NCBI GenBank assembly: GCA_038741355.1
Contig: JAVYLC010000005.1
Location: 1-32,000 of the forward strand
Reading direction: 5' to 3'
DNA length: 32,000 nt
Source of the DNA: Nitrososphaerota archaeon
GTDB lineage: Archaea; Thermoproteota; Nitrososphaeria_A; Caldarchaeales; Calditenuaceae
The notes beneath the pieces are model-generated. The model made no database searches and had not been told where the DNA came from. It worked only from the letters and a program-made list of their open reading frames with translations. Of this stretch, positions 7,203-20,457 are shown one piece after another (positions within the stretch are counted from its first letter, which is position 1; each line of letters opens with the position of its first letter). A program made the position numbers and the translations under genes.

Positions 7203-7718
7203 CTATCTCACCCCCAGGCCGATAGACTCGAGCCAAGACTCAACCACTTCTCTAACCCGCAGGTACAACTCCCTTTCCTCTTCAACCATGTTGCGGATTA
7301 GGGACGGGTCTAGGCTCCGCAAGGCGAAGGCCAGCATTTTAGCCATCCTGATCGAGACGATGTCTCGGTAAGCCTGCATCAGAGACTTGTACGACCCGGG
7401 ATCCATCTCTCTTTGTCCAGCCAAGGCAGAAGCTACGCTATAGTAAAACCTCTCAGGGAGTTCCCCCAGCTCTATAGGGCTCCTCCGCTCCCTCCAGAGA
7501 ATCTGGGTCAGCTTTGGCAGGTCTATAGCGCCGCCAACCGGCTCAGCAAGACCCGATTCCCGCAGCTTCTCCATCGCCCAGAGAGGAAGTGTTATCTGTG
7601 ACCCCTGCCTCAGATCGGCTAATTCTCGGCCTCCAACCCTCAAACGGGCTATGTCACGGTTCAGCTTCACCCTAACCTGGGAGACCAGCTGCTCTATCCG
7701 CGTTGTGTGTTGGGGCAT
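7203..7718 (-). CDS. GINS subunit (Gins23-like)
   Basis: 171 aa. Its stop codon (7203-7205) directly abuts the mcm ATG (7200-7202), the gins23-mcm arrangement known from Sulfolobus. GINS-like features are ITLPLWAMEKLRESGLAE and the C-terminal EEERELYLRVREVVESW. Confidence 0.5.
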   Translation of the reverse strand: MPQHTTRIEQLVSQVRVKLNRDIARLRVGGRELADLRQGSQITLPLWAMEKLRESGLAEPVGGAIDLPKLTQILWRERRSPIELGELPERFYYSVASALAGQREMDPGSYKSLMQAYRDIVSIRMAKMLAFALRSLDPSLIRNMVEEERELYLRVREVVESWLESIGLGVR

Positions 7719-7792
7719 GTCTCTATGAGGGACTCGGCCGCAGGGTTATATCTGCATATAGACACCTCGGCGAAAGAAATCAATCCAATGTA

Positions 7793-8674
7793 TTACATGG
7801 GCCTCGTCTCTGCGCTGAGCCTCAGAAAGAGCTTTACGGTCAAGTCCCAAGGAGTTATTATTCCACCCCCATCTTCCAGTAGGCAGCACTTGGCCTCGCT
7901 CGCGAGTAGGCGGTCCAAGACGATCTCCAAGTCGTCCCCAGAAGCGACAACTGCGGGATGCAGGAGGAACTCATCCAACTCTCCTACAGGCAGGTTGAAA
8001 AGCCTCTCAGGACTGTCTCGGGTCAGCTCCATATTCTGGATGGAGCCAAACAAGAACTTCACGACCGACCTATCGCTCAAAATCGCATGTCTGTCCTCGA
8101 CTACAAGCCTCCGGACACCCTTATTCAGCATCAAGTGGATAGATTCTAGGACCGTCTGGTCTGACTCTATTGACAAAACCTCTGGACCGGAGCAGACGTC
8201 AGCCGCGCGATAGCTTCTCAGGAAGGACCACAGGGGCCTCTTGGCAGCCGAGTACCTCAGCACGGTCAGAAGATCGAGCATCCCCGGCCTCCTATCATTA
8301 ACTAGGGCGAAGCCAACCCCAAACTCTGACATCAGCCCGAAAAGCGCTGCCAAGCTCTCACGCCTATCCAAAGAGGGCACGGGCCGAGATATCTCCCCAG
8401 AGGTCACCCTCATCACATGCCTCCACACCTCGTGGTTCTTGGCAAGTAGGCCGAGTATCTCACGCCCAGTTATAACGCCCTCTACAATGTACTGCTCCTC
8501 CGATTGGCCATGGTCAGCCACGACGACATGGGAAGCCCCCTGAGACGCCAGCAGCGCACCCGCCACCAGGGCTGGTTGCCTCGAAGAGACGGACACATAG
8601 GAGCAAAACTCCGGAAAAGCAGCCACTATTTCCTCAAGAGACACCCTATAGACGGGCGAAGCATTTTCTGTCAA
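7793..8674 (-). CDS. CBS-domain protein (apparently two CBS pairs)
   Basis: Repeated CBS-like segments (VVVADHG...VEGVITGREILGLL, GFALVNDRRPGMLDLLTVLRY, GVRRLVVEDRHAILSDRSVVKFLF, CCLLEDGGGIITPWDLTVKL). TTG start in the ORF track, so the exact start is uncertain. Confidence 0.5.
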   Translation of the reverse strand: MTENASPVYRVSLEEIVAAFPEFCSYVSVSSRQPALVAGALLASQGASHVVVADHGQSEEQYIVEGVITGREILGLLAKNHEVWRHVMRVTSGEISRPVPSLDRRESLAALFGLMSEFGVGFALVNDRRPGMLDLLTVLRYSAAKRPLWSFLRSYRAADVCSGPEVLSIESDQTVLESIHLMLNKGVRRLVVEDRHAILSDRSVVKFLFGSIQNMELTRDSPERLFNLPVGELDEFLLHPAVVASGDDLEIVLDRLLASEAKCCLLEDGGGIITPWDLTVKLFLRLSAETRPM

Positions 8675-8810
8675 TCAGATAGATTTTTGCGCCTCCCTTA
8701 CTTATTCTTTTCCAGCTGCATGATTATCAACAACTCGTAAATAAGCGGTGGAGGGGGGGACTTAAGTGGTCTGAAAAGGGCTTAAATGGGCTCTGCCTAG
8801 GGTCATTTAC

Positions 8811-12851: not shown

Positions 12852-14765
12852 CTAGCCGACCACTATTGTGTCGAGGTTCTTCGGCGTGTAGATGGCAGAG
12901 TCCAGAACCCTTCTAGCGGCTCCTGCAATCGAGTTCACGGCCTCCGGCTCACCGTGGACAAATATGACGTTCTGAGGCTTTGGAGAGATCCTCTTAAGAT
13001 AGGAAAGTATCTGCTGCCTGCTGGAGTGTCCTGAGAAACCGTCAACCTTCTCCACGGCAGTGGCAAGCTTAAACACCTCTTGCTTCCCCTCCTCATTGAT
13101 TATCGTAACCTCCCTCATGCCTTTCAGAATCTTCCTGCCTAGCGTACCCTCAACCTGATAGCTCACGAATAATAGTAGGTTCTTATCGCTCTCCGACATA
13201 CTCCTTAGATAAGAGAGGACGGGGCCGCCTTCAAGCATCCCCGACGTGGCCATAACGATCATAGGCTCCCTGCTCTCAAGTATCTCCTCCCTATGGTTCT
13301 GACTCTTCACGCTTACAAAATAGTCTGAGAAGAAGAGTGAATCACCCCTCAGAAACTCATCCCTACTCTCGGCCGAGAAATATTCTGGGAAACAGCTATA
13401 GATTGATGTAGACTCTATGAGAAGGCCGTCAAGTATTACTGGGACCTCAGGAATCATCTTAGACTCTATCAGGTTCTTAATCACCAGCATTATTTCTTGA
13501 GCCCTCCCGACAGCTGGCACAGGGATCAAGACACTACCACCCGAATTCACTGTTCGCGTAATGTGTTCTGCGAAGATTCGTTCAGTCTCCTCTCTCGTGA
13601 ATGGGACTGGTGTGGCGCCGTAGGTGCTCTCTATGATGAGTGTCTCCATTCTTGGGAATTTGGATGTGCTGGGGTCGAGCATCCGGGTTCTCTCATACTT
13701 AAAGTCCCCGGTGTAGACTATGTTGTGGAATCCCTCGCCTATATGGAGGTGCGCGATGGCGGAGCCTAGGATGTGCCCCGCATTGTAGAATGTTACCCTG
13801 ATGTCGGGGGTAATATTGGTTACGACCCCATATCTGAGTGGGACTACATGGCGTGCCGTAAGTCTGATCTCTTGTTCGCCATAGAGGGGGTATTGCCCAG
13901 TCTTAGCCGCTAGGTTGAGATAGTCTAAATGCTCCATAACCATTAGCGGGAGCGTGGGCTCTGTCATGTAGACTGGGCCCCGATAGCCGTGCTTGAATAG
14001 GAATGGGAGCGCGCCGTGATGGTCCATGTGTGAGTGTGTTATTATGACGGCGTCCAGCATATCGACCAGCTCGGGGAAGAAGTCCATTCTCGGCAGCATT
14101 TCTACCGGCCGGCTCGCCCCAGCGCTTATGCCGAAGTCCATCAAGACGCAGCTCTCCCGCGTCCTGACCAGGAGGGCGGAGCGCCCTACCTGCATTCCAC
14201 TCCCTAGAACAGTTATCGAGACTTCTCCCGGCTCAAACAGCTGCTCCCTAAATATCCTCTCACCGATCCTTCGCAAAATCTCAATCCTACCTTCCCCATC
14301 CCCATAGAGATACTTCTTCACTCTCTCCAGTGTTTTTGAAGGGGTGAGTGGCGTCCTTGCTACTGTGATTAGCCAGTTTATCTGACGCTCGAGGGCCGCC
14401 AGCCTCTCAGGGGTCAGGAGGTTGAATAGTTGCTGGTCGCTGCTCTCAATCACAACCTCTCCGAAAAGGTTATCAAACGTGATGTTTGCAGAGTAGTTGT
14501 TAAGCGCCTCCTTCAAAAACTTCTTAGCCTCATCCTGAGGCAGCCTAATAGACTCGTCCGGCCGAATAACAACCCTCTTCTTGATCAAGTTCACGAGGTC
14601 TCTAGCGATAGAGTTTCTCTCGGCGAAAACCGAAGGCTCCGCGGTGTATATCGCGATCCTAGGCCCCTCGAAATCAATCCTAGTAACTACGCGCTCGCCC
14701 TTCCGCAGTGTAACGAGGTAGTTGAATATGTCTGCCCTCAGCTTGGATAGCATCCCATCTTCCAC
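12852..14765 (-). CDS. fttA: aCPSF1/FttA: KH-domain beta-CASP metallo-beta-lactamase RNase (archaeal transcription termination/3'-end factor)
   Basis: 637 aa. N-terminal KH-like region, MBL signature IITHSHMDHHG and a beta-CASP region with a C-terminal HGEP motif. Length and architecture are typical of aCPSF1. Confidence 0.85.
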   Translation of the reverse strand: MEDGMLSKLRADIFNYLVTLRKGERVVTRIDFEGPRIAIYTAEPSVFAERNSIARDLVNLIKKRVVIRPDESIRLPQDEAKKFLKEALNNYSANITFDNLFGEVVIESSDQQLFNLLTPERLAALERQINWLITVARTPLTPSKTLERVKKYLYGDGEGRIEILRRIGERIFREQLFEPGEVSITVLGSGMQVGRSALLVRTRESCVLMDFGISAGASRPVEMLPRMDFFPELVDMLDAVIITHSHMDHHGALPFLFKHGYRGPVYMTEPTLPLMVMEHLDYLNLAAKTGQYPLYGEQEIRLTARHVVPLRYGVVTNITPDIRVTFYNAGHILGSAIAHLHIGEGFHNIVYTGDFKYERTRMLDPSTSKFPRMETLIIESTYGATPVPFTREETERIFAEHITRTVNSGGSVLIPVPAVGRAQEIMLVIKNLIESKMIPEVPVILDGLLIESTSIYSCFPEYFSAESRDEFLRGDSLFFSDYFVSVKSQNHREEILESREPMIVMATSGMLEGGPVLSYLRSMSESDKNLLLFVSYQVEGTLGRKILKGMREVTIINEEGKQEVFKLATAVEKVDGFSGHSSRQQILSYLKRISPKPQNVIFVHGEPEAVNSIAGAARRVLDSAIYTPKNLDTIVVG

Positions 14766-15196
14766 CCTTACACAGTAAGACCCTTTTAGCTCCCCAGGAT
14801 ATGCCCCAGGGGGTTCCTAAATGTATTATCGGAGGCTCTATTTAAAGGCTCGTTAATGCAAGAAGGAGTTCTAGGATTCTAATCCAACGTCATGAAAGGG
14901 GAAAAATAAGGGGAGAGGTTGGTTAGAGGTCAACCGGCAGAACAGCACTGAGGAGCCTCAGCGAAAGGCCGGTATAGATAAAGTGTGGGGCAGTAGGGAG
15001 ATCTCTCTACTTCCTGAAAAAGATGCGGACACCTGCCTTCCGAGGTATTCCCCGCTGTTCAGGCCGGTACTCTCCGGCCTCTCCCGCGGTCCTCCTCTCA
15101 CCGTCATCCATATCATTCTCAGAATTCTCTCCTCGTCTCTGGCTCTGTGTTTTGGGTTGTTCAGGACCACTAAAGTCAGGCGAGACAGCACACTCC

Positions 15197-15856
15197 TCAC
15201 CGCTCCATTGTAGAGTTTCGGCCTACCCCTGAAGAGTCCGAAGAATCTTCTAAACCGCTTATATGATTGCTCCTGTTAATGTGGAGCAGTATTTCTGCCA
15301 AGGCCTCCCTGGCAAATAGAAGTTTCTCTCCAGAGATTCCTAGAGCCTCAACCAATCTGTTGTGGAACGGTAAACGTCTCTCCGCCTCATAGACTATCTT
15401 TGTAGCTACCCTCTTCATGGACTCCTCAATAGTCCTAACAGAGATCATTAAGCCCTCTCTATCATCTTCCTTCAGGGCCTTAGCCCTTTTTAGAAGACTG
15501 GTGCGCGTCTTAAAAAGACTTCTGAAGACTGCGCATAGCCTTCTGATTACTAGGAAGTCTTCATCGACTTCTATGAACCACATTGAATCCAAAGACATCA
15601 TTGCTTTGAGGTCGTTGCGGCTATTCTTCGGCAGCTTTAACTCCACCCTCCTCTTCGCAACAATTGTTATCCTTCTCAGATTGAAGATCCTCACACCCCT
15701 CCTCAGGAGTTCGACAAATTCATCGGTCAGCTCTATTGGTATTGTGTCTACGTAGAGTTCATATCCTGCCTCTGCCGGAATTTCTACAATACTTTTTGCC
15801 TTGCTGAAAGTTTCTCCGTCCATAGTGTAGATGTGGTAGTTCTCTTCAGTCTCCAT
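15197..15856 (-). pseudogene. IS110-family-like (DEDD/RuvC-type) transposase remnant, probably frameshifted near 15270
   Basis: Weak resemblance to IS110 transposases: IYTMDGE, YVDTIP, LLRRGVRIFNL, KNSRNDLKAMMSL (KTDxxDA-like) and LVEALGISGEKLLFAREALAEIL (siPGiG...llaEi-like). The expected GL.P...G..lR..L continuation (FFGLFRGRPKLYNGAVRSVLSRL) appears in another frame from about 15275 downward. A/T-rich compared with its surroundings. Confidence 0.35.
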
Positions 15857-16221
15857 CCTCCTTTCCTTATTTGCTAGTCTGTGGACATCTACGAAGAATC
15901 TTTTACACTCTCTCTGGATTTATATTATAGATCCTTTTCCGGGATTCTTCATCTGTTCATCCCCTCTACCAGGAACCCGAAAACAAACCCTAGCTTCTGT
16001 AAGTCTACCATGACTAGCGATTGGTGAGGCCTAGTTGTATTTAGGACTTGAGACCACTCAGTGAAAGTGACACCTCATATTTCTAGCTTTCTCATGACTT
16101 TCTAGAAGGGGTGCAAGATTTTAAGTGAGGAATTGTAGATAGTGGCATAAAGATACCGTAGAGACCGCAAATAATGGGGGAGAGGAGACTGATGAAGGCC
16201 CGTTGGTGAGGCTCAGTAGAG

Positions 16222-16485
16222 TTGAGGGGGGTGATAGCCGAGTGCATAGGGTTTCTTGAGGTGGTTAGGGATAGGTGCGCTAATAACCCTACCGTCTACA
16301 CGGATAGGGCTCCATGGTACGGATGGCCCATGAAGGTTCTGGGCTTGAGGAGGAGGGTGGAGACGTTCGGCAGTAGGAAAGCTATAGAGTCTTGGTTCAG
16401 CGGGCTGAAGAGGAGGATAAAACAGTTCAACACATGCTCCCCAACATACAGGCCGAAGATATCGGAGAGGTGGATAAAGGCATAG
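16222..16485 (+). pseudogene. IS6-family DDE transposase, C-terminal fragment
   Basis: VYTDRAPWYG and RKAIESWFSGLKRRIKQF match the IS26-type motifs INTDKAPAYG and RNNVIECDHGKLKRII. There is no N-terminal part upstream (stop at 16207-16209). The ORF ends 5 nt before an IS6-type terminal repeat. Confidence 0.65.
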
Positions 16486-16490
16486 ATGGC

Positions 16491-16507
16491 CTTAAGTTGA
16501 CAGTCCC
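16491..16507. repeat. IS6-type terminal inverted repeat copy (CTTAAGTTGACAGTCCC)
   Basis: 14/17 identical to the right end of the MITE at 24066-24082. The first 13 nt are identical to the copy at 31412. The outer end reads GG... as in IS6-family ends. Confidence 0.5.
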
Positions 16508-16598
16508 TCGAAGCCTCCAATGCCTTTATCTCGCCGGTGTTTCTGTCGAAGATCCACAGACTTTTTTTTCTCCAAGCATAACTACTTCTCCGCGGCAA
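16506..16598 (-). pseudogene. IS6-family transposase fragment (region around the first catalytic Asp), opposite orientation
   Basis: YAWRKKSLWIFDRNTGEIKALEASR resembles IS26 GRWAYLYRAVDSRGRTVDFYLSSRR. The homology stops exactly at the outer end of the terminal repeat at 16491-16507. Confidence 0.45.
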
Positions 16599-16863
16599 GC
16601 GTCATGGACCTAGGCTGGTCGCCGATGAGATGCCTGTAGAAAACCCTGTCAACATGTCTCATCAGAAGCCCGTTCCTAGCAGCTATCACGGCGCCGCCAG
16701 CCCCGTCGGAGACCGCGGCTGTGTAGTCTGCCTGAGGAGCCGTCAGCACGCCTATATTGCTGGGAAGCCGGAGGGGCCTGCGGCTACCACCCCGTCACCG
16801 CATATAAATGAGGATGGGGGGTTTTACCCATTTAAAGTGTCTCGATTCCGCGATCTATCACTA

Positions 16864-17652
16864 CTACTGCCCCGAGACCCGCGGTTTTAATGCAGCCTTC
16901 CAGAGGTGTATGATGGCATAGGGCCTCGAAACCCCCTCGTCTTGCATTATCTTCTCGATCGCAGATGCTACCCGGGCCTCGTCCCTGTATTTGGCCACTA
17001 ACTCCTTGTATAATGGCTCGGCCTCCTCAGTGCTTGTGGTCAGCTTTGCGATTGTGCGCGGTAGAGACCTGATATTATCTATTTTCACTTGGAGGTCAGA
17101 TATTTGCTTCTTTATCTCCGCGATCTTGTTTCGATATTCCTCAACCTCTGCCTCCAGTGTTTTGAGCCGCTCGTTTTCAGCATCGTTCAGCGAGCCTTCA
17201 TGCGTCCGTAGGTATTCGACTTCTACGAGCCTGTCGAAAAGCTGTTCTTCCAACTCGCTCATCCTCGTCTCCAGCAAACCAAGAGCCTCGTTAAGCAGGT
17301 TCTCGCAGGTCTGCGCCTCGCTCAGCAGCGCGTTCCTCTCATCTGATAGCTGGTTCAGCTTCTTCTTCACGGAGCGGAGGTCAACCTCATCCCACTTCTT
17401 GAAAACTCTCTGGATTGAGCGGTCCATCTCCCGGATTTCCCTTAACTTTGCTTGGATGGCGTCAAAGCTCTTGAGCGCCTCCTCATAGTTGTCTATTGGT
17501 TGCTGGGCCGTTGGCTGGGCCTGTATTTCCTGAGGCTCTGGACCCTGTCTTTCTACCTCATGAGCCCCTGTCAATTCGCCTACCTGCTGCTCTGATTGGG
17601 TAGTCTCTGGTATTAGCCGCCTCTTGATCACTATCCGCTTCTTATCACTCAT
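16864..17652 (-). CDS. Coiled-coil protein of unknown function, translationally coupled to the JAMM protease gene
   Basis: The ATG at 17650-17652 overlaps the JAMM stop in the string ATGAGTGA, which is preferred over the upstream start at 17664 in the ORF track. The N-terminus is Q/E/P-rich. A long heptad-like helical region follows (LREIREMDRSIQRV...LEAEVEEYRNKIAEIKKQISDLQVKIDNI), then a small C-terminal globular part. There is only one Cys, so it is not a RING. Confidence 0.6.
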   Translation of the reverse strand: MSDKKRIVIKRRLIPETTQSEQQVGELTGAHEVERQGPEPQEIQAQPTAQQPIDNYEEALKSFDAIQAKLREIREMDRSIQRVFKKWDEVDLRSVKKKLNQLSDERNALLSEAQTCENLLNEALGLLETRMSELEEQLFDRLVEVEYLRTHEGSLNDAENERLKTLEAEVEEYRNKIAEIKKQISDLQVKIDNIRSLPRTIAKLTTSTEEAEPLYKELVAKYRDEARVASAIEKIMQDEGVSRPYAIIHLWKAALKPRVSGQ

Positions 17653-18256
17653 GCCTCTTAACACCCTCTGCCCCTAGGCCATGCAATAGAAAGTTACTGA
17701 TAACCTTGAAGGGTTTTGGGACGGGCATGTTATGTTCTTCATATTGGAAGATAGATGTTGTTGTGAGGCTGATGATCGTGGATTCGAGCATCTTACGGGT
17801 TCCGGCCCCAAAGGTCACTGGCAGCTCAATTACTTGGTTATTGGGCCCCACTCTAAAGACCTTGAATAGCCCGTCTGATACCTTCTTGGAGCCGCCGTAC
17901 TTTGAGGGATCTATAACTAGGGCGATGGCGTTCTGGTATAGTGCCTGATAGGTTAGCTGGGTTCGGATATCTATAGGGGACAGGAATAGACCTAGAGATG
18001 GATGGGAGTGGTACCATCCAACGATAAAGAGGGGGATTTTATGGTCGTGAAGGAATTCTGCTACCCTTGCCATCACCTCTTCATTAAGGACGACGAACCC
18101 TGGGGAGCCGGTCTGGCTGCCGGTAACAGCATCCCACACCTCAACAACCCCATTCTCCTCGGTCCCAAGCAGTAGACCCGCCACCTCAATCTTGGGGTTA
18201 GAGAGGGAGTGGTTGATGACTTTTGCTAGCGCCGGCGGGAGCAGCCTAACCCTCAT
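17645..18256 (-). CDS. JAMM/MPN+ metalloprotease (Rpn11/CSN5-like deubiquitinase candidate)
   Basis: Upstream Glu in KIEVAGLLLG and a complete JAMM motif, GWYHSHPSLGLFLSPID (H-x-H-x7-S-x2-D). 203 aa. Confidence 0.85.
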   Translation of the reverse strand: MRVRLLPPALAKVINHSLSNPKIEVAGLLLGTEENGVVEVWDAVTGSQTGSPGFVVLNEEVMARVAEFLHDHKIPLFIVGWYHSHPSLGLFLSPIDIRTQLTYQALYQNAIALVIDPSKYGGSKKVSDGLFKVFRVGPNNQVIELPVTFGAGTRKMLESTIISLTTTSIFQYEEHNMPVPKPFKVISNFLLHGLGAEGVKRHE

Positions 18257-18283
18257 TTTGCCCCAGTATCATGTAACTACCTG

Positions 18284-18293
18284 CCTATAAACC
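18284..18293 (-). promoter_or_regulatory. TATA-like box for the JAMM/coiled-coil operon
   Basis: The minus strand reads GGTTTATAGG about 32 nt upstream of the ATG at 18256. This spacing implies a leaderless or near-leaderless transcript. Confidence 0.4.
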
Positions 18294-18505
18294 CCTTACC
18301 TACATACCGCCCCGCTACGGGGGGATCAAAGATCTCTCACAACACTTGTAGTGCCTTCTCCCTTTACGAGTGTGGTAGACTTTGCCCGCCCCAAATTGTC
18401 CCATCATACTTTAAAAATCACCCAGGCGCAGTCCGAGGCCGTACCATATTATCGGGAGCGCGTATTTGTTACGTATGTGTGCACGCGATTCTCAGTACAG
18501 TTAAT

Positions 18506-18515
18506 CTATTTATAG
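18506..18515 (+). promoter_or_regulatory. TATA-like box for the Ub-E2-E1 operon
   Basis: CTATTTATAG lies about 40 nt upstream of the Ub ATG at 18552. Confidence 0.4.
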
Positions 18516-18551
18516 CCCATCCAATAAACTGGATTAGGCGATGCGGGAAAT

Positions 18552-18788
18552 ATGAAGATTAGAATAGTCCCTGCGGTTGGTGGTGGCCCGCCAATCGAAC
18601 TAGATGTCCCGCCCAATGCAAGTATAGGTGCCGTGAAGATGCGGGTTTGCGCCATAAAGAAGTTGAGGCCGGAGGATGCGAGGCTCACGTTTAAGGGAAG
18701 GGCGCTGAGCGACTCTGAGACAATCTCTTCAGCAGGAGTGACTGAGGGAGATAAACTGGTCTTGATTACTAGGACAGTTGGTGGGTAG
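18552..18788 (+). CDS. Ubiquitin-like beta-grasp modifier ending in Gly-Gly
   Basis: 78 aa. The C-terminus LVLITRTVGG is followed directly by TAG (checked: ggt ggg tag at 18780-18788). TFKGRAL resembles ubiquitin IFAGKQL, and LVLITR..GG resembles LHLVLRLRGG. Confidence 0.85.
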   Translation: MKIRIVPAVGGGPPIELDVPPNASIGAVKMRVCAIKKLRPEDARLTFKGRALSDSETISSAGVTEGDKLVLITRTVGG

Positions 18789-18790
18789 CT

Positions 18791-19294
18791 TTGGAGGCGT
18801 CGGAGGTTGGGTATCTGCCTGAGAGCAGATGGGTCAGGCGTCTGGCCCAAGAATACCAGCTCATCAGGAACTATGAGCCCAACTTCGACGCTGTAGGCGG
18901 CGACCTGACACACTATAAAGGAATAATTATCGGTTCTGGAGCCTATGATGGTGGGGTATTTGTTGTGGAGATTATCCTCCCACGCTCATTCCCATTTGTT
19001 CCCCCCGAGGTGGTCTGGCACACCCGGATATGGCATCCAAACTTCACGGATGAGGAGCCTGCTAGAATCTGTGAATCAATCCTGAACAAGGATTGGTACC
19101 CCAACATGCATATCGTCTCGGTTATTGAGGCTCTGAAGAACCTTCTCGCCAACCCTAACCCGGATGACCCGCTCAACGTCTGGGCAGCCCAAGAGTTGAA
19201 ATTATATCCAGAGAGATTTATCGCCCGGGTTAGGGAGTATATCAGGCTCTACGCAACGCAGGAGCGGTCCCTAGAGAAGCTCGCCGGGATATGA
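18791..19294 (+). CDS. UBC-fold ubiquitin-conjugating enzyme (E2)-like protein
   Basis: Canonical UBC layout: RRLAQEYQLI, GGVFVVEIILPRSFPFVPPEVVWHTRIWHPNF (HPN motif), catalytic-Cys context RICESILNKDWYP, and LLANPNPDDPLN. The only available start is TTG at 18791, 2 nt after the Ub stop. Confidence 0.85.
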   Translation: MEASEVGYLPESRWVRRLAQEYQLIRNYEPNFDAVGGDLTHYKGIIIGSGAYDGGVFVVEIILPRSFPFVPPEVVWHTRIWHPNFTDEEPARICESILNKDWYPNMHIVSVIEALKNLLANPNPDDPLNVWAAQELKLYPERFIARVREYIRLYATQERSLEKLAGI

Positions 19295-20457
19295 CTGGTA
19301 TGGAGAGGTACGACCGTCAACTCCGCATAGAGGGTTGGGACCAGAACATTCTACTATACTCGACCGTATTTATTGCTGGCGTCGGAGCAATAGGTGGTGA
19401 GGTGGCGAAGAACCTCGCGATGATGGGCGTAGGCAAGTTGATACTCGCAGACTATGACTATGTTGAGCTAAGCAACCTGAGTCGACAACTCCTATTCCGG
19501 GACTCAGACATAGGTAAAGGGAAGGCGAGAGTTGCAGCTGAGAGGCTACGCGAGATTAACCCCCACGTAGCAGTCGAGGCCTACGGTCAAGATATCCGGG
19601 AGCTAGGAGAGGAGGTGCTAGGCAATGTGGACATAATCTTCTCATGCCTGGATAACTGGGCGTCCAGGAGGTGGTTGAACTCAGTTGCTGTCAGCCTTGA
19701 CAAACCCTTAGTCGACGGCGCCATGAACGGATTTTATGGAAATGTTCAGGTGGTTTTTCCACGAAAAACTGCGTGCCTAGAGTGCCAGAGCATTAACCTC
19801 ATACCTAGAGAGGAGAAGCTGGCAGAGTGCACACTTAAGAGGAGGAAGCCTGAACACCTCGTCAACGATCTGAAGGAGCATGGAATCATAATTTGTCTTG
19901 AGGAGGCTGAGAAGCTCTTCCAACTCAATATAAAGACGATCTACGATATAAAATACACGAAGCTAGACATGGTAGCGGAGTTGGCTGATGACCAGACACT
20001 AAAGCTGATAGAAGAACTAAGGTCGCGGCTAATGCCACCTATGCCTGCTATCCAGTCTGTAGCCTCAGTAATTGCAGGAATCATGACAACTATCGGCATA
20101 CAAATACTCCATCAAGGGCGTCTCGGAAAGCCGCTGACAGGCCTCATCGTTTATGACGCCCTCAACTCTCGCCTATCCCGTATCAAGATCTCCCGAGACC
20201 CGCACTGCATAGTATGCAATGAAAACTATTCTATGCCCCTCGAGCTTTCCTTCGACTTGAGTGAGACAGTCCTGAAGCTTAAAGAAACATTGGCCTCGGT
20301 CTTCGGATTCCCAGACCCCGAAGTGTTATATGCTGGGAAGAGACTGGACGATGAGGATGTCCTTGCCAAGGTTGGTGTGAGGGACAGGGATGTAATCTAC
20401 ATCTCTACGACGCGGCTTTTTGAGCCCCTAGCAATCAGGATAGTCTCCTCAGCCTAA
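19291..20457 (+). CDS. E1-like (ThiF/MoeB/Uba-type) adenylating enzyme with C-terminal beta-grasp-like domain
   Basis: RYDRQLRIEGW, nucleotide loop GVGAIGGEVAKNL, LSNLSRQLLF, and two CxxC pairs (CLEC at aa 162-165, CIVC at aa 306-309). There is an insert of about 85 aa between them, with Cys180 and Cys202. The ATG overlaps the E2 stop (ATGA at 19291-19294). Confidence 0.85.
   Translation: MTGMERYDRQLRIEGWDQNILLYSTVFIAGVGAIGGEVAKNLAMMGVGKLILADYDYVELSNLSRQLLFRDSDIGKGKARVAAERLREINPHVAVEAYGQDIRELGEEVLGNVDIIFSCLDNWASRRWLNSVAVSLDKPLVDGAMNGFYGNVQVVFPRKTACLECQSINLIPREEKLAECTLKRRKPEHLVNDLKEHGIIICLEEAEKLFQLNIKTIYDIKYTKLDMVAELADDQTLKLIEELRSRLMPPMPAIQSVASVIAGIMTTIGIQILHQGRLGKPLTGLIVYDALNSRLSRIKISRDPHCIVCNENYSMPLELSFDLSETVLKLKETLASVFGFPDPEVLYAGKRLDDEDVLAKVGVRDRDVIYISTTRLFEPLAIRIVSSA

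Follow-up and report, generated by a model that had tools for sequence, protein, structure and literature searches.

We analysed the first 32,000 nucleotides (nt) of contig JAVYLC010000005.1 (positions 1 to 32,000, forward strand; GenBank assembly GCA_038741355.1), a stretch of DNA from a Nitrososphaerota archaeon of the Calditenuaceae that we refer to as the window, and focused on a minus-strand gene, here called CC262, that encodes a coiled-coil protein of 262 amino acids (aa) and directly follows the gene of an Rpn11-like JAMM/MPN+ metalloprotease. The coding sequence (CDS) of CC262 occupies 16864..17652 (-), running from an ATG at 17652-17650 to a TAG stop codon at 16866-16864, and the exact protein sequence is deposited as NCBI MEM0481589.1, a 'hypothetical protein' of a Nitrososphaerota metagenome-assembled genome (MAG); a protein of 'Ca. 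Calditenuaceae archaeon HR02' is 92% identical. The start codon lies within the 8-nt string ATGAGTGA (17645..17652 (-)), whose last three bases form the TGA stop codon of the JAMM gene (17647-17645) in a different frame, and the minus strand around this point reads ...GAGGGTGTTAAGAGGC ATGAGTGA..., an arrangement typical of translational coupling that the initial annotation had already pointed out and that the sequence bears out. Within the JAMM CDS, 10-16 nt 5' of the CC262 ATG, a direct reading of the sequence also gives a Shine-Dalgarno-like GAGGGTG (17662..17668 (-)), which we infer may act as the Shine-Dalgarno element for CC262. A longer CC262 frame beginning at a GTG at 17664, as proposed by the open reading frame (ORF) finder, is used by no orthologue, and we regard this start as unsupported because all orthologues begin MSD, MSE or MPKK. 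At the other end of the gene, 33 nt past the stop codon, we observed a terminator-like stem (ATGGGTAAAACCCCCCAT) with a T-rich tail (16814-16831 (-)), which did not rise above shuffle expectation in a scan that used a bacterial-type consensus only.

The protease itself (MEM0481590.1) is a protein of 203 aa encoded at 17645..18256 (-), the first gene of the two-gene operon (Pfam JAB, 3.3e-16). Its active-site motif is intact (E24...H83-x-H85-x7-S93-x2-D96), and it is 49-58% identical to the Rpn11-like proteins of Caldarchaeum and other aigarchaeal lineages. A basic amphipathic helix is conserved at the C-terminus of the aigarchaeal Rpn11-like proteins (e.g., LLEKAKKLF, SLLKKVKDKV), and the corresponding C-terminal helix of the window JAMM (region 17645-17720) is KPFKVISNFLLHGL.

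The pairing of these two genes was followed across genomes by two routes: loci were fetched by JAMM protein from species-representative genomes and all of their ORFs were then searched with a CC262 hidden Markov model (HMM), and, independently of JAMM, metagenomes were searched with a degenerate DNA pattern for IPREYAxxLxW[KR]. CC262 was found directly downstream of JAMM, on the same strand, in 12 species-representative genomes—Caldarchaeum (including C. subterraneum, locus L012), archaeon HR01, three Terraquivivens species, Calditenuis fumarioli and other Nitrososphaerota—and JAMM is likewise directly upstream of CC262 in the window and in its close relatives L001 and L002. The DNA pattern found 15 metagenome loci, with JAMM directly upstream in each of the 13 that had upstream sequence. 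Altogether, CC262 lies immediately 3' of JAMM and in the same orientation in all 28 informative loci, which are not all independent and which span three families (Calditenuaceae, Caldarchaeaceae and, through Terraquivivens, Wolframiiraptoraceae). The place of CC262 directly after JAMM is thus invariant, and where the initial annotation had named a lack of synteny with the ubiquitin (Ub) and JAMM genes as one observation that would speak against its proposal, we find JAMM 5' of CC262 throughout. The spacing between the two genes is more variable: they share 8 or 4 nt in the window, in its relatives L001 and L002, and in L004-L006 and L030, and are separated by +1 to +50 nt in the remaining lineages. 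The pair is kept in L030, which has no Ub, E2 or E1 gene within 7 kb, and in L006, where Ub is the only conjugation gene adjacent, while the gene 3' of CC262 differs among lineages and is often convergent. Since the pair persists next to a changing downstream gene and even where E1 and E2 are not adjacent, the conserved unit is the two-gene operon of JAMM and CC262.

We next consider CC262 as a family. A word-indexed search returned 7 close homologues at 66-92% identity (E down to 4e-145), and an exhaustive profile search, run against 1.8 billion representatives, added 13 further clusters of 197-274 aa that align end to end, 12 of them at E <= 1e-10. A wider profile collected 25 proteins, all from Caldarchaeum or Nitrososphaerota MAGs, labelled 'hypothetical' or carrying automatic coiled-coil misnomers, none of them with a Pfam domain. 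Scans of CC262 against Pfam, NCBIfam, PADLOC and PHROGs yielded sub-threshold coiled-coil matches only (Phage_scaffold, Rad50, SMC, JetC, LmuB, tape measure), and the family profile found only noise among Protein Data Bank (PDB) sequences (designed coiled coils, SMC, prefoldin beta, tetherin and a TSG101 stalk fragment at E = 0.26). As these family libraries and the PDB offer nothing above threshold, we treat CC262 as a new family, in agreement with the initial annotation, which had recognised neither a known family nor an enzymatic motif. Its members fall into about 20 sequence clusters, every one of them from Caldarchaeales ("Aigarchaeota") and with Caldiarchaeum subterraneum among the sources, and CC262 is a real gene under purifying selection that founds a previously unannotated family restricted to this order. 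Identity to the Caldarchaeum, HR01 and Terraquivivens orthologues (L007, L010, L016) is 27-33% for CC262, compared with 47-51% for JAMM and 65-69% for Ub, so that CC262 evolves faster than the neighbouring enzymes, as accessory subunits typically do. We found no earlier description of the gene in full-text literature searches or in the primary papers on C. subterraneum (PMC3082918, PMC5654768, PMC6043591).

Members of the family are about 250-275 aa long and share an N-terminal motif followed by an acidic linker, long helices bearing R106, E135, E167 and R174, an LPxxIxxxTT turn and a C-terminal signature, and the window protein fits all four of the family's elements in the alignments. We modelled it with AlphaFold2 (AF2) using the family alignment, which gave a predicted local distance difference test (pLDDT) score of 79 and a predicted template modelling score of 0.64 over the full length, with the helical core mostly above 90; conservation was judged across 28 CC262 sequences. 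Residues 1-13 (MSDKKRIVIKRRL; 17614..17652 (-)) form a basic/hydrophobic, strand-like motif of net charge +5, recognised in the family alignment, with the consensus M-[PS]-x0-2-[KR][KR]-I-[VI]-[IVL]-[KR]; it reads MSDKKRIVIKRR in the window protein and MPKKIVIK in most lineages, and Lys and Arg are interchangeable within it, such that the motif of family member P0007 has no Lys. Residues 14-50 (17503..17613 (-)) are a linker of net charge -6 that is 51% Q/E/P and predicted to be disordered (pLDDT 28-37), as is all of the model up to residue 50 except for a short terminal segment; across the family, its acidic character and rough length of about 40 aa are conserved while its sequence varies. 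Residues 51-195 (17068..17502 (-)) contain three long helices (51-85, 92-150 and 157-195; pLDDT mostly >90) that, in the prediction, double back on one another to give an elongated bundle, with D77, Q81, R106, E135, E144, E167 and R174 as invariant or near-invariant polar positions. The remainder (residues 197-262; 16867..17064 (-)) combines the LPxxIxxxTT turn with a small three-helix C-terminal domain, seen in both alignments and model, whose signature is Q237-x-E-x-[IV]-P-[RK]-E-Y245-A246-x-I-x-L-W-K; its helices lie within 208-255 in the full-length model, and modelled alone the domain again gave three helices (AF2, pLDDT 76). Fully invariant residues are E135, E167, Y245 and A246. The protein has no hydrophobic segment, and its single Cys and three His are not conserved. 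The outline that the initial annotation had drawn from the sequence—a Q/E/P-rich disordered N-terminus, a long helical stretch, a small globular C-terminal segment and the lack of a Cys/His cluster—therefore holds in every part.

The N-terminal motif also has a counterpart elsewhere in the cluster. Ub (MKIRIVP), the RING protein srfp (MKIVVKT, MRIVVRT, KRITI...) and CC262 (KKRIVIK, MPKKIVIK) all begin with similar basic-hydrophobic strands, located at 18552-18572 for Ub and 17614-17652 for CC262 in the window and at the srfp N-termini in L007-L029. This likeness could reflect a shared docking element or coincidence.

Structure comparison gave no known fold. The full-length model had no match at E <= 0.001 against PDB and BFVD with Foldseek, and its best structural neighbours were generic long bundles, i.e., AhlC/ClyA, syntaxin, SMC arms, TelA and tape-measure proteins. 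The nearest of these (ClyA/AhlC toxins, syntaxin Habc+SNARE, SMC arms) match with E >= 0.01, a template modelling (TM) score <= 0.45 and 10-15% identity, whereas CC262 lacks a hydrophobic head, transmembrane segment, SNARE motif or ATPase head; the likeness is one of generic helix packing only. We accordingly rejected a ClyA/AhlC-type alpha-pore-forming toxin (best E = 0.012, TM 0.29-0.45, hydrophobic beta-tongue/head missing). Comparison with ESCRT-III and PspA, which the initial annotation had suggested, gave no support for a relationship: ESCRT-III/PspA/Vipp1 proteins are not among the top 50 PDB matches, the first 50 residues of CC262 are disordered where those families begin an alpha1-alpha2 hairpin near residue 10-20, and there is no Snf7/PspA match in Pfam. 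For the C-terminal domain, neither a profile search of PDB and Pfam nor AF2 with Foldseek returned a significant match. Weak Foldseek matches to UBA domains (1wj7, 2dzl), N4BP1 CUE-ubiquitin structures (8t48, 9a1l) and RuvA domain III were seen, all at E 3-9 and those to UBA/CUE with probability <= 0.2 and TM 0.34-0.48, no better than noise, noting that three-helix domains so small rarely reach significance. Like UBA and CUE domains, the CC262 domain is a three-helix unit of about 45 residues, but it lacks an MGF/MFP-type loop motif, and Pfam UBA/CUE profiles do not match it even at E <= 10; as the Foldseek matches are non-significant, we keep this identity as a candidate without adopting it, and the comparisons speak neither for nor against a ubiquitin-binding role of the domain.

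These comparisons bear directly on whether CC262 is a functionally unrelated coiled coil (SMC/Rad50-like, cytoskeletal or scaffolding) that merely shares a transcript with JAMM. Weak sub-threshold matches to Rad50, SMC, JetC and phage-scaffold families point in this direction, as do the Joint Genome Institute (JGI) automatic names of two clusters, 'SbcCD ATPase subunit' and 'chromosome segregation ATPase'. However, the matches fall far below curated cut-offs and cover heptad regions only (23.7 bits against a cut-off of 700 for NCBIfam Rad50, and 15.7 against 567 for SMC), and a protein of only 262 aa without ATPase head, hinge or zinc hook is not an SMC/Rad50/SbcC ATPase, an identity we reject. 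That the two genes adjoin in 28 of 28 loci, in three families and with changing flanks, is moreover hard to explain without a functional link, and we consider an unrelated coiled coil unlikely.

Upstream of the JAMM-CC262 operon, a divergent intergenic region (18257..18551) with presumed promoters, as judged from gene layout, separates it from an operon on the opposite strand that encodes Ub (78 aa, ending GG-stop; 18552-18788 (+); Pfam), the conjugating enzyme E2 (18791-19294 (+); UQ_con, 4e-27) and the activating enzyme E1 (19291-20457 (+); ThiF, 5e-61, with a C-terminal Ub-fold domain). This block spans 18552..20457 (+) and is followed by a convergent PALP gene, with no RING gene there. Indeed, the 32 kb of the window contain no RING-type Cys/His pattern, whichever frame is read, as the initial annotation had noted for the cluster's ORFs, and clusters without a RING ORF within 7-16 kb are also found in L001, L002 and L004-L006. 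The clusters of the window and of these five loci additionally lack two srfp-associated coiled-coil genes (about 115 aa and about 280 aa). In most other Caldarchaeales (L007-L011, L016-L029; e.g., L017 2488-4780) the clusters extend past E1 with srfp, a coiled-coil protein of about 103-150 aa with a conserved xYhETPxGK, a convergent coiled-coil protein of about 280 aa and a second RING protein, none of which is present in the window. We examined both coiled-coil proteins as possible CC262 homologues and rejected them: hhalign gave probabilities of 28% for the post-srfp protein and 13% for the convergent one, and HMMER registers were inconsistent.

Given these RING-less clusters, in which CC262 is the sole gene without an assignment, one might suppose that CC262 serves as an E3 (ubiquitin ligase) surrogate or substrate receptor, recruiting substrates to charged E2 where the RING gene is missing, much as the initial annotation had imagined an adaptor in an E3-less system. 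The family as a whole does not follow this pattern. Two RING genes accompany CC262 in L007-L011 and L016: srfp, which comes after E1, and a second one whose product of about 231-254 aa has hydrophobic, probably membrane, N-terminal segments. The combination of CC262 with two RING genes is found in Caldarchaeum, HR01 and Terraquivivens; because of this coexistence, CC262 is not a replacement for a RING ligase. In addition, CC262 is always attached to the JAMM gene and never to the E2/E1 operon, it persists where E1 and E2 are not adjacent (L030, L006), and it lacks a Cys/His cluster, with the cross-brace C3H2C3/C3HC4 ligands and the RING pattern of a RING/U-box E3 absent from its sequence; a RING gene may also lie elsewhere in the genome from which the window derives. 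An E3 surrogate is, in our judgement, quite improbable, and the notion of an adaptor for an E3-less system is not supported by the comparison.

Instead, we propose that CC262 is a physically associated cofactor or adaptor without catalytic activity, produced in stoichiometric amounts with the deubiquitinase, that targets or regulates the enzyme, a reading to which we assign a probability of about 0.5. A partnership with JAMM is the best reading because CC262 follows JAMM in every informative locus across three families, and the role of an adaptor fits in several respects: the linkage is to the JAMM gene rather than to E1 or E2; the layout of short motif, flexible linker, rod and small domain suits a protein with two binding modules; CC262 evolves faster than the enzymes; and eukaryotic JAMM enzymes rely on non-catalytic partners. 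Under this model, CC262 would share a transcript with the Rpn11-like JAMM, be coupled to it in translation and so be produced in step with it, and would bind it through its helical bundle, through the tethered strand motif at its N-terminus, or through both. One module would thereby hold the deubiquitinase, while the remaining one, either the C-terminal three-helix domain or the N-terminal motif with its flexible linker of about 40 aa, would contact a second partner, e.g., ubiquitin conjugates or an unfoldase/proteasome. CC262 would be dispensable for catalysis and would not be the E3. A more specific version, in which CC262 is a non-MPN archaeal scaffold counterpart, stoichiometric with the Rpn11-like enzyme, that couples deubiquitylation to conjugates and/or an AAA+ unfoldase-proteasome, is tentative and somewhat doubtful; such coupling would run through the tethered N-terminal strand motif and the small C-terminal domain.

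Several observations weigh against the cofactor proposal. The co-location, coupling arrangement, conservation and non-enzymatic modular architecture of CC262 are firm, but the JAMM-CC262 interaction is one that we infer from gene order only. In vitro, the Rpn11 of C. subterraneum is a monomer that shows activity by itself (PMC6043591, PMC5654768), so a partner is not needed for catalysis and any role of CC262 would be modulatory. CC262 is also absent beside JAMM in Wolframiiraptor, Benthortus, Geocrenenecus and related MAGs, where an rpl21e-type operon follows the JAMM gene, although the three named genera have the same Ub cluster and JAMM. The basic C-terminal helix of JAMM occurs in genomes with and without an adjacent CC262 and, being kept in the latter as well, is not a partner-specific docking site. 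Finally, neither a ubiquitin-binding domain nor any other known domain was recognised in CC262 by Pfam, NCBIfam, PDB or Foldseek searches.

Because the CC262 gene adjoins that of an eraser enzyme, we also weighed whether CC262 is a dedicated substrate or ubiquitin acceptor whose modification is reversed by the co-encoded JAMM, comparable to the targets of bacterial CBASS Cap2/Cap3 or Bil systems. The helices of CC262 are Lys-rich, and the C. subterraneum cascade modified Lys residues of the Rad50 coiled coil in vitro (PMC5654768). Yet none of the invariant residues (E135, E167, Y245, A246) is a Lys, Lys and Arg are freely swapped in the N-terminal motif to the point that P0007 has no Lys there, and the cluster lies in a conserved housekeeping neighbourhood rather than a defence island, with PADLOC returning coiled-coil noise only. 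We therefore regard a dedicated substrate as very improbable.

Eukaryotic JAMM deubiquitinases act with non-catalytic partners, namely Rpn8 and the proteasome lid, CSN6, Abraxas/ABRO1 and STAM, and the C-terminal helices of Rpn8 and Rpn11, as well as BRCC36 and Abraxas, associate by helical-bundle or coiled-coil contacts. The proposed cofactor resembles the Rpn8-Rpn11, CSN6-CSN5, Abraxas/ABRO1-BRCC36 and STAM-AMSH pairs in that it would serve an Rpn11-type JAMM as a dedicated accessory protein, with a proposed role in positioning or regulation, but it differs from these partners in having no MPN domain and no SH3, VHS or UIM domain, and homology to them was detected neither in sequence nor in fold. 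With regard to MPN (JAB1/Mov34) in particular, Pfam gives no JAB/MPN match for CC262, whose AF2 model consists of helices throughout. The analogy to MPN-minus partners raised by the initial annotation can thus stand at the functional level at most, and fails at the level of structure, since CC262 is all-alpha without an MPN fold.

The closest described system is that of C. subterraneum, in which rpn11l is divergent from ubl-e2l-e1l-srfp (Nunoura 2011, PMC3082918) and which was also treated in Hennell James 2017 (PMC5654768) and Fuchs 2018 (PMC6043591). The window shares this gene cluster and its orientation, and its JAMM, Ub, E2 and E1 are orthologues of the C. subterraneum proteins. C. subterraneum carries a CC262 homologue (HIQ29117.1, 265 aa; L012 778-1575) directly after its own Rpn11 gene (CSUB_C1473), while the papers describe and reconstitute the system without the CC262 gene (PMC3082918, PMC5654768, PMC6043591). 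The window cluster differs from that of C. subterraneum in having no srfp, a convergent PALP gene after E1 and a Ub that needs no C-terminal processing. The window Ub gene stops exactly after GG, as it does in L001, L002, L004 and the Wolframiiraptor group, whereas the Ub of L006 has one extra C-terminal Arg and the genes of Caldarchaeum, HR01 and Terraquivivens add 8-20 residues at the C-terminus (loci compared with the window here include L007-L016, L023 and L025). Since Ub in the window lineage ends GG-stop, JAMM is not needed for Ub maturation there and should be a deconjugase only.

Further features of the window and of related loci were noted in passing. About 2.1 kb (14766-16863) separate the CC262 stop from an aCPSF1-like gene (12852-14765) in the window, compared with only about 100 nt in L001 and L002, and in an alignment the spacer of L002 matches this gap at both of its edges. 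The gap holds an orphan ORF of 219 aa (15197-15856), which has no family in Pfam, NCBIfam, PADLOC or PHROGs, and an ORF of 87 aa (16222-16485), a transposase remnant by impression only, with zero profile matches; from its sequence, 14766-16863 looks like an insertion. Rfam and tRNA scans found no RNA genes in the window. Outside the Caldarchaeales, about 38 Asgard loci (L036-L083; Promethearchaeota, Heimdall, Hod, Hermod) carry a multi-pass membrane protein of about 370-420 aa at 0-200 nt after JAMM (about 7550-8750 in each locus) with a conserved [RK]E[FY]NSPHNT[AS]FF, which is another conserved JAMM partner, distinct from CC262. In L033, L034, L035, L044, L049, L051 and L052 (Bathyarchaeia, Thermoplasmata and one Thermoleophilia), JAMM is contained in a much longer ORF of about 250-530 aa, directly followed by a small ubiquitin-like gene starting M[RK]LFIQAPIGPQTGLAEI....

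CC262 is best viewed as an accessory component of a well-known Ub cluster, one that is confined to a single lineage and had not been recognised before. This description corrects the tempting reading of the gene as a stand-in for a missing E3. The Caldiarchaeum-type cluster of Ub, E1, E2, RING and Rpn11 is the reference model for the origin of eukaryotic ubiquitylation, and it has been reconstituted and crystallised without the CC262 gene; if the proposed role is true, work on the reconstituted 'minimal' archaeal ubiquitin system would have left out a conserved component. CC262, encoded beside the deubiquitinase wherever it occurs, is an obvious candidate answer to the question of how an organism without a proteasome lid controls or targets its Rpn11 homologue.

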